From assembly GCF_964204645.1 (NCBI RefSeq), contig NC_134028.1, forward strand, positions 1,984,001 through 2,048,000: a DNA stretch of 64,000 nt, read 5' to 3'. Below, piece after piece: positions 37,082-40,000 of this stretch. Numbering within the stretch: the first letter of the stretch is position 1; each line of letters begins with the position of its first letter. Under the pieces are notes generated by a model. That model was not told the DNA's origin. It worked only from the letters and a program-made list of their open reading frames with translations, and searched no databases. The DNA is from Tubulanus polymorphus. Its lineage: Eukaryota > Animalia > Nemertea. The position numbers and the translations under genes were made by a program.

Positions 37082-40000
37082 TTAGGACATCAAATTTTTG
37101 TAATGCGCGTTTATAGCTCGGCCGATGACTAACTTACGAACTTCCGTCGTACCAGCTCCGATTTCATAAAGTTTCGCATCTCTCAGTAAGCGGCCAGTAG
37201 GGTAATCATTAATATAACCGTTACCACCTAAGAAAAAAATATTCAACTTATAATAACAGCCATAGATTTACGTATCGCTTCTGACTAATCTCACTTCTTA
37301 ACGTACCTAAGATCTGAATAGCGTCTAAAGCCATTTTAGTCGCAGCTTCAGCAGTGTATAGAATAACTCCAGCACAATCCATAGGCTGTCGTTCTCCGCG
37401 ATCTAGAGCTCTAGCTACGTTATACGTGTACGAGCGACATACGTTTAACATCGTATACATATCTGCCATTTTTGCTTGAATCATCTGAAAAATAACAGGG
37501 TCAAAACAAATCAGTCATTCCTGGATATAAGGAGTTTTATTTAAAGATTGAGTGAGTGAGTGAGTGACTGTGCGTGTGTGTATGAGTGCATGTGTGTGTA
37601 TCTTCTCCTTTTTTGTTCTCCGAGGGTGCCTACACTCACAAGCTTAGCTTTATCTATGGCTCCCCTGCTGTTATTTTACCTCAATGTATATAAACAAGAT
37701 CGTAATGTCTATATCATCATAATTATAATTGTATTCCTTATATATTGATGTAAATTATCCAGGAAATAAAATGATATGATAATTTCAAATTTCGAGGAAG
37801 TGTCTGCATCACTTTCATATCCCAATTACAGTAGACTCCTCCTCCTAAATCGGATCTGTTATCTTGGAAAACTGTTAATACAGTGGTTTTATAAGCAAAT
37901 TTCTATCCTTGACACTACTCAACTCGGTTTCTAATTCGGTAACTCGCTCATCGTAACAAAAATATCCCGGTTCCAACTATACTGATACAGCCTCTTCTAC
38001 GTAGACATGATGCATGAGGCATCCTCGTGTAAGAGCAGACAATGAATGACCGTAAAGACTTTCTTACACACCTGAAATTCACCAATTTTCTGGTCAAATG
38101 CTTTGCGAATATGAGCGTACTCAAAAGCCACATCACAACATGCTTGCATTATCCTGAAAATAAAGAATTAACGCAAAATTCAAAGAAACAGTGCATAGTC
38201 AAAAGCCCAAAAAGGTAGCTATAAAGAGAGAGATGAATTGTAGTGCATATTGAAATCATACCCGACAGGTCCAGCTGCTAATACAAGTCTCTCAATGTCT
38301 AAACCACTCATCAGCACATAAACTCCTTTACCGAGATTGCCTAACACGTTCTCAGCTGAAAACAAATGAAATATCGCCAATTATTGAAAACTGTTCTGAA
38401 TACCGGAACATCTTGACTAAACCGAGATCAGGTGGATGTTGAGAGACCTTATTAGCAGCCACAGGGTGATTTGGGTGGATATATTGCGTTTGATATATAG
38501 TTTAGCGGTATATGCTGGAACCAGTTGCCCAGACAAGACTGAGGTTCAAATAAATGCTGTCTGAACAGATGAGCCTTAAATCTAAGCCTTGACTCGGTAA
38601 CAACTGGATCCTGGGGTCGCTTCCATAATCTGACAGTAAATCTCACCCAATCGGCCCAGCAGCTCCAAGAGCTCTTTCCACATCCAAACCGCTCATCAAA
38701 ACATAAACCCCTCGGTTTTTTCCACCAAGAATATTCGCGGCTAAAACAAAATTAATTTCGTGCATTTTTTTTTTAAATGGCCATTCATAGAATTTGATCG
38801 ATGAGTGATTTGGATCATAGAATGAATTGCTGAACAGAGCTGCTTAATACGATCATAGTGAGAATCATGGAATCTGTGGAAAAGACAAACAAGTAATCTG
38901 ATCAATTGTAAGATGTCGAGGAAAATTTTAAGGAATATCCTTCATAATCTAAGAGCATGTGCATCTATCTCACCCGAGACTAAGTGCAGCAACTATAACC
39001 CTTTCAACATCCAAACCACTCATCAAAACGTAAACACCTTTGTTCAAATCACCGACAATATTTTCAGCTAAAATACATTTTGAATATTTCGATCACCCGT
39101 GTTGTCCATAACTCCAACATTGGACCAAACAGAATTAGAAAGTGATGTAACAAGACCAAGCATGCCTTAAACAAACCAGTCGTTTTAATTGTTGTAAATT
39201 CTTAAATTTTACCTGGAACTTTGCAATCTTCAAATACAAGTTCACCGGTATTCGAGCCTCTCATTCCCAACTTGCTTAATTTCTGAGCGCAGCTGAATCC
39301 TTCCATTCCCTAGAAACATTATCAATACGAGTTCATAAGTGAAACTGCAAATACGAACACATTGTGACAATGCTTTCAATGTCAGTAAGACAAACCTTTT
39401 CTATAAGGAATGTAGTGATCCCGTGCTGTGGTTTCACATTGAAGTCCGTTTTTGCGTAAACTACTAAAACATCTGCATCTGGTCCATTCGTTATCCAAAA
39501 CTTGCTACCGTTTAATACATAATAATCTCCTGAAAAACCGGATATCCAAGTCCAGACTATGTAGGTCAGTAAATGGGTGGTTTGACTGTTTACCCAAAAA
39601 ACCAATAAAAATCAATAGAATCGATTAAAAGTCAAATATAATTTTTAGCTGATACCTTTCTTTTCTGCTTTCAGTTTCATAGAAACAACATCAGAACCGG
39701 AGTTTGGTTCGCTCATCGCGAGAGCCCCGATATAATCACCGCTTATCAGCTGAAATACAGTTAAATCACACAAATCTAATCTTCGAAATAGATCTAACTC
39801 TCTTTCTCCCTTCTGAAAACTACATTTCATGGAATTTACCACAAGCTACAACATACCTTCGGTAGATATTTATCTTTTTGTTTATCGTTACCATTTTTCG
39901 CGATTTGATTTACGCAAAGATTCGAATGCGCTCCGTAACTCAGGGCAACGCTAGAACACGCTCTCGACATCTCTTCCATTACTAAACAATGATCTAGATA

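Follow-up and report, generated by a model that had tools for sequence, protein, structure and literature searches.

The 64,000-nucleotide stretch of Tubulanus polymorphus DNA analyzed here (the window) contains, on its minus strand, a gene for isovaleryl-CoA dehydrogenase (IVD) in which exon 8, the exon encoding the catalytic helix, is present in three intact copies, A, B, and C. Splicing of exon C in this species is shown directly, and we consider it very probable that alternation between B and C is a functional switch. The overall explanation that we favor, with modest confidence, is that C is the default and that B is likely swapped in to give an enzyme with an opened pocket floor. Residue numbers are those of mature human IVD in 1IVH, which equal the precursor numbers minus 32. 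The features of the gene, in transcriptional order, are these:

37082 to 40622, minus strand: IVD coding span, ATG to stop, with 11 exons of which exon 8 is alternative; isoform C is identical to protein P0001.
39213 to 39309, minus strand: exon 7, the constitutive upstream partner, spliced to C in runs X3 and X5.
38974 to 39067, minus strand: exon 8A (Val258, Leu261, Ser262); an A-like first copy with Leu261 is found in locus L003.
38800 to 38815, minus strand: X, an intron element whose sequence complements the MSGLD codons in A, B, and C.
38647 to 38740, minus strand: exon 8B (Ala256-Leu257-Gly258), carried by RefSeq isoform X2.
38439 to 38459, minus strand: Y, an intron element whose sequence complements the ERLVLAA codons specific to C at 38274-38295.
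38262 to 38355, minus strand: exon 8C, the canonical IVD form with Leu258, carried by RefSeq isoform X1.
38072 to 38153, minus strand: exon 9, the constitutive downstream partner, spliced to C in runs X3 and X5.

The sequence-only reading of this DNA had placed three 94-nt exons here, and inspection of the minus strand verified their coordinates. Each copy is 94 nt long, is flanked by AG and GT, runs from phase 1 to phase 2, and is free of stops; the three thus have the hallmarks of tandem duplicated exons, being homologous, adjacent, equal in length and phase, and bounded by intact splice sites. A tblastn search of the 64-kb window revealed no fourth copy. One copy joined to the ten constitutive exons gives a 430-aa open reading frame, whether that copy is A, B, or C, whereas zero, two, or three copies lead to an early stop between codons 266 and 334, with further junctions downstream of it. 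The introns between the copies are 233 and 291 nt long, which rules out steric exclusion as the cause of mutual exclusivity. Because introns of this size permit double inclusion, the frame constrains only the productive mRNA and cannot itself block a double choice. Thus, the earlier claim that exactly one copy must be used stands for productive mRNAs and not for splicing itself. mRNAs that include two copies would be degraded by nonsense-mediated decay, so that frame and decay could only clean up.

The three copies share 55-63 of 94 bases in pairwise comparison. In the core (residues 243-255), the proportion of synonymous differences between copies (pS) is 0.60-0.94 and that of nonsynonymous differences (pN) is 0-0.05. 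The entire exon 8 cluster also lies within a single contig of run X1, with 22 differences to the window. Constraint on the core together with this intact contig indicates an old, constrained duplication rather than chance or an assembly error. The core had been described as invariant under purifying selection; the pN and pS values bear out the selection between copies, but the core of A is polymorphic, with a GTT-to-GGT change (Val246Gly) in runs X1 and X3. At the position of Leu258, alignment to human IVD verified Val in A, Gly in B, and Leu in C.

The protein encoded with exon C is letter for letter P0001, the RefSeq IVD isoform X1 of T. polymorphus. The other member of the P0001 cluster, P0125 (RefSeq X2), carries B and differs from it at 11 residues, all within exon 8. 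Joints of exon 7 to C and of C to exon 9, with canonical ends, are present in contigs of runs X3 and X5, which come from two studies; the run comparison covered exons 6-9. No joint of A or B was found in the contigs of runs X1, X2, X3, and X5 (4 of the 6 runs listed), where contigs prove presence and not absence. Run X3 also has one unspliced contig that spans the A and B copies together with both inner introns (38329-39113). Use of a B-type exon is seen in an oyster contig product, P0146, which is spliced and holds that exon between the usual flanks. Alternative catalytic exons in IVD, as first proposed from the window, are therefore corroborated by the C joints, by B in RefSeq X2, and by paired Leu and Gly/Ala forms in other species.

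Those pairs are consistent in both place and kind. Same-length isoform pairs differ solely within residues 233-263 in 21 of 21 cases, and in all 20 species pairs one form has Leu at position 258 and its partner has Gly (18) or Ala (2). The 20 pairs, which were chosen because both forms are present in databases, comprise 1 nemertean, 1 brachiopod, 1 bryozoan, 14 molluscs, 1 priapulid, and 2 amphioxus, which we take to represent six phyla. Partner isoforms differ at 8-18 residues. Among 200 distinct segments, residue 258 is Leu in 170, Gly in 21, and Ala in 5, and Gly258 segments occur additionally in Bugula, Phallusia, and one further contig. B precedes C in all four cases where exon order is visible: the window, L003, P0009, and P0082 (the two proteins being from Plakobranchus and B. 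lanceolatum). The sequence-only reading had named as a refutation that C alone is spliced and that A and B lack conservation; for B this fails, given the 20 same-gene pairs and the spliced oyster product. Conservation beyond the species thus holds for the B/C pair, and an A-like first copy was found in L003.

L003 carries three exon 8 copies in the same order, at 960-1053 (A-like, ERMVAAGLAL), 3951-4044 (B), and 5508-5601 (C). Among named sequences, its other exons match Capitella best (46/62), a weak hint of an annelid. Oyster read-through frames (P0199-P0201 and P0285-P0298) contain a B exon and, 56 nt on, another copy with ERVFASSGCV (Ala258); with Ostrea X3 (ERAVVATGPI) counted as well, the number of copies in oysters may be three or four, as judged from these frames. 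B-type segments were not found in the clusters of Biomphalaria/Bulinus (5 members), Littorina (2), Patella (2), or Elysia (2), nor among Lycorma, spiders, fish, sharks (15 of 23 listed), and Trichoplax (2), where annotation gaps are possible in each case. Exon B alone as a query matched 5 proteins, all with Leu258. The Branchiostoma IVD cluster (P0088) includes synaptotagmin-15-like proteins, a clustering artefact.

The place of residue 258 in the pocket is known from human IVD. According to the accessible part of PMC12369846, E286 is the catalytic base, M280, D284, and R287 contact CoA, G406/A407 make room for the beta-methyl branch, and L127 with L290 forms a barrier at the pocket bottom, a bottleneck for chains of C7 or longer, where medium-chain acyl-CoA dehydrogenase (MCAD) has T121/V284. 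Converted to mature numbering, these residues are E254, M248, D252, R255, G374/A375, L95, and L258, in agreement with the roles earlier assigned to Glu254 and Leu258. Exon 8 therefore encodes one of the two barrier residues along with the catalytic base and the residues that contact CoA; the base and the contacts are constant among A, B, and C, and the barrier residue varies. Glu254, in helix G, is present in all three exons and aligns to residue 254 of 1IVH and, in 9JQ4, to the site of the E286A change. Gly374-Ala375, which replaces the Tyr-Glu of MCAD, was found in exon 11 in the stretch [11 protein letters not shown], as the reading of an IVD-type rather than MCAD-type motif requires. Isoform C has the Leu95-Leu258 barrier, associated with a C4-C6 limit. 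B (Gly258) and A (Val258) lack it and are, by this barrier, non-canonical variants of the IVD fold. An AlphaFold model of isoform B made with 79 sequences (predicted local distance difference test score, pLDDT, 87.5) folds as IVD, with human IVD as its top match (root mean square deviation 1.1); a single-sequence prediction was discarded at pLDDT 37.

With copy C spliced in, the gene would yield an ordinary isovaleryl-CoA dehydrogenase. With copy B swapped in, Gly would replace Leu258, which is predicted to open the floor of the pocket to acyl-CoAs that are longer or bulkier. Since Leu258 stands at the chain-length barrier of the human structures, B likely deepens the pocket, and since B retains Glu254, Met248/Asp252/Arg255, and Gly374-Ala375, its likeliest substrates are 3-methyl-branched acyl-CoAs beyond C6. 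We infer that B lifts the C6 limit yet keeps the beta-methyl room. On balance we lean slightly toward these substrates, and to about the same degree toward the deeper pocket.

Bacterial genes bear on this prediction. An exact pattern for Gly258 IVD-like genes matched 3 of 185,579 prokaryote genomes. In two of them, the betaproteobacterial G001 and G002 (loci L004 and L005), the Gly258 gene is flanked on one side by an acyl-CoA ligase gene and on the other by an OYE/FadH-like reductase gene, in a cluster that also contains an enoyl-CoA hydratase and an ABC transporter (the NCBIfam names for these neighbors are below cut-off). Each of these genomes has a second, Leu258 paralog adjoining a MerR regulator, which we take to be LiuR. 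The Gly258 cluster resembles one for fatty-acyl degradation, an independent but weak hint in favor of the substrate reading of B. In a wider search, the 29 nearest other bacterial loci all had Leu258; G297, an unpublished genome, underpins none of the conclusions.

Several points weigh against an opened pocket in B. The deeper pocket is a prediction from residues and a model; B is also altered at 256, 257, and often 259-262, and a backbone shift instead of a simple cavity is possible. The bacterial parallel comes from 3 genomes, two with the same cluster, and the third Gly258 gene is the sole match in its genome and has another neighborhood; the bacterial paralogs also differ at further pocket-side residues. 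In Tubulanus, RefSeq X2 is an automatic model, and no B joint was seen.

Two other functions of the alternative forms were weighed. B could be a low-oxygen IVD, working, for example, in the enoyl-CoA reductase direction or tuned to anoxia. B is present in intertidal and benthic groups, molluscs have mutually exclusive coq-2 exons for rhodoquinone (accessible part of PMC7434440), and an oyster alternative oxidase has a duplicated exon under air exposure (accessible part of PMC5589949). However, B extends to amphioxus, bryozoans, and a tunicate sequence, none of which belongs to the rhodoquinone makers listed in the accessible part of PMC7434440; the conserved change lies at the acyl pocket floor, away from known FAD or electron transfer flavoprotein contacts; and the accessible part of one paper on this subject contains no link to IVD. 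We therefore regard a low-oxygen form as improbable. Still less credible is that A and B are weak or inactive subunits that damp IVD activity within the tetramer. The B catalytic helix does contain several small residues, but Glu254, Arg255, and Asp252 are intact in 21 of 21 B-type segments, a fixed Gly/Ala258 over six phyla points to a specific gain, and Gly258 enzymes exist as separate bacterial genes. The preferred reading of B remains an enzyme with an opened pocket floor.

Exon A, whose Val258 matches the MCAD residue, would provide a third, rare form, and we see an even chance that it makes an enzyme. The alternative, to which we give not quite that weight, is that only B and C work, with A decaying or kept as an RNA partner that draws element X off B. 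Against an enzymatic A, no model or joint of A was found (contigs show presence only), and neither of the 2 members of the Tubulanus RefSeq cluster models it. Its Val246Gly variant introduces a residue that none of the 200 segments compared has at this position, its Gly261Leu and Pro262Ser changes replace residues that otherwise scarcely vary (196 of 200 segments have Gly261), and its acceptor is the weakest of the three, with 8 pyrimidines of 16. X pairs best with the A core, which could preserve that core at the RNA level, and in a tree the first copy of L003 groups with L003 B and not with exon A, which also counts against an enzyme. On the other hand, the frame and splice sites of A are intact, with pS of 0.67-0.82 to the other copies; the first copy of L003 shares Leu261, found in 0 of the 200 segments compared, and has its own candidate selector; and the Ostrea model X3 represents a third form that has Val258.

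The introns between the copies contain sequences complementary to the exons themselves, which we report here as new. X pairs with A (39009-39024) through 15 Watson-Crick (WC) and 1 GU of 16 positions (0 of 1000 shuffles did as well), with B (38682-38697) through 14 WC and 1 GU (3/1000), and with C (38297-38312) through 13 WC and 1 GU (6/1000). Y pairs with C (38274-38295) through 20 WC and 1 GU with one bulge (0/1000); it extends to 38433, with weaker pairing to A and B that was nonsignificant (98 and 279 of 1000 shuffles). Among the 156 exon-intron pairs of the gene, these four are in the top five, the remaining one being exon 9 with the exon 6-exon 7 intron. None of 6 intron-intron pairs within the cluster was significant, so the window does not show the docker-selector layout, and an Rfam search gave no match. 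The order A-X-B-Y-C permits noncrossing states that each leave one exon free, with energies within 11 kcal/mol.

We tentatively propose that X/Y pairing acts as a splicing switch, a reading we regard as somewhat doubtful. X would mask B by default, and pairing of X with A instead would free B; and Y would mask C. The stronger acceptor of C likely biases the choice to C. That X-B pairing represses B and that X-A competes with X-B is the only robust prediction. Three results weigh against the switch: equilibrium folding pairs X with B and Y with C (0.98), masking the sole exon seen spliced; a state with Y held by A or B occurs in the window haplotype and not in that of run X1; and in L003 none of 12 exon-intron pairs was significant. 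Before C is transcribed, A and B are both paired in the window haplotype, and Y is free in the run X1 haplotype. Rank-1 effects of the variants at 38450 and 38691 were dropped as a selection test, since the window allele is possibly derived.

A plausible rival, which we still would sooner doubt than accept, is that X and Y are leftovers from small inverted duplications or serve ADAR as editing-complementary sequences. Each looks like an antisense fragment of the exon 3' half, L003 lacks such exon-intron pairs, and the window allele at 38691 disrupts one of the X-B base pairs yet is tolerated. However, X and Y are located only in the two inter-copy introns, and none of the adjacent constitutive exon-intron pairs reached significance. 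At 38450, either allele retains 21 Y-C pairs, a weak point, as 11 of 63 possible changes do about equally well, and exon C shows no A-to-G differences in run X3/X5 contigs, which lose rare variants. L003 has a different arrangement, an intron-intron layout with a downstream docker: candidate selectors 1415-1444 and 4828-4854 both pair with a docking site at 6494-6520 (1/200 and 0/200 shuffles), which could be a dispersed repeat. In locus L002, the 3' end of the B exon (1209-1232) pairs with the downstream intron at 1657-1680 (1/500 shuffles).

The B/C pair is old or recurrent, as judged from the segments compared. With all 30 columns, a tree sets B and C apart with 2 label changes. With columns 256-263 removed, B and C are not separated (13 label changes), identities of 22 being 15.06 between a gene's own B and C and 15.07 between Bs; a single origin of B is thus unsupported by the tree. 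Convergent tandem-exon events are described as common (accessible part of PMC9741552). It is conceivable, if rather unlikely, that the protostome-deuterostome ancestor had a splice-switchable IVD with a leucine-pathway form and a further, hitherto undescribed mitochondrial dehydrogenase for longer methyl-branched (e.g., isoprenoid-derived) acyl-CoAs, that this was lost in vertebrates and insects, and that the nemertean choice is made by exon-pairing intron elements, each state freeing one of three exons.

Comparable systems are known. In the accessible parts of PMC11178532 and PMC9741552, alternative exon 3 of ACOX1 gives ACOX1a, with peak activity on C10-CoA, and ACOX1b, with a peak on C16-CoA; like the IVD forms, these are equal-size isoforms of an acyl-CoA-oxidizing flavoenzyme made with homologous alternative exons. 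ACOX1 is a vertebrate peroxisomal oxidase with two such exons, whereas IVD is a mitochondrial dehydrogenase with three copies of the exon bearing the catalytic base. The coq-2 exons 6a/6e likewise are mutually exclusive, remodel an enzyme core, occur in molluscs, annelids, and helminths, are absent from vertebrates, and, like the IVD exon, may have a single or a repeated origin (accessible part of PMC7434440). According to the same source their substrate switch is genetically proven and tied to rhodoquinone, whereas the IVD exon is found also in amphioxus, bryozoans, a brachiopod, and a priapulid. In the docker-selector systems of Dscam, 14-3-3zeta, Mhc, MRP1 (PMC6071210), and ATE1 (PMC7797038), competing RNA helices surround duplicated exons, and in the accessible parts of these papers the elements are intronic, whereas those in the window pair an intron with a coding exon. 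The comparison also drew on the accessible parts of PMC10925408 and PMC6856725. Compared with human IVD (1IVH, 8SGR, 9JQ3-5), isoform C retains Glu254, Leu95, Leu258, and Gly374-Ala375, and no Gly258 form was present among the fish and shark cluster members examined. The accessible part of the human IVD paper PMC12369846 makes no mention of isoforms.

RefSeq holds IVD isoforms X1/X2(/X3) for Tubulanus, Lingula, Watersipora, bivalves, Haliotis, Priapulus, and Branchiostoma; these are not named as a pocket switch, and Tubulanus exon A is unmodelled. The initial suggestion that this had gone undescribed for IVD holds in part: titles and abstract openings of the papers listed in literature searches contained no description of an IVD exon switch (subscription journals and supplements lay outside the search, and a catalogue of mutually exclusive exons could list it), but the B and C products already exist as automatic RefSeq models. 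The wide animal distribution and the exon-complementary intron elements are absent from the sequence-only reading.

Elsewhere in the window, a dynein heavy chain gene (Pfam MT, AAA_8, AAA_9) occupies about 44000-64000 on the minus strand. The plus strand carries, at 1349-3486, 9022-10065, and 13000-14297, TIR_3 and DBB-like exons (below Pfam cut-offs), an MFS transporter, and galaxin-like Cys repeats.

If B has substrates of its own, a splice-switchable mitochondrial acyl-CoA dehydrogenase activity would be hidden under the IVD label in many marine invertebrates. The pairs would offer a natural test of Leu258 as the chain-length setter of IVD, with partners that differ at 8-18 residues, and the Gly258 paralog of G001/G002 is a convenient enzyme for assay. 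In oysters and mussels, regulation is readable from public RNA-seq. Exon-targeting RNA pairs, if true, would be an unusual way of choosing among duplicated exons.
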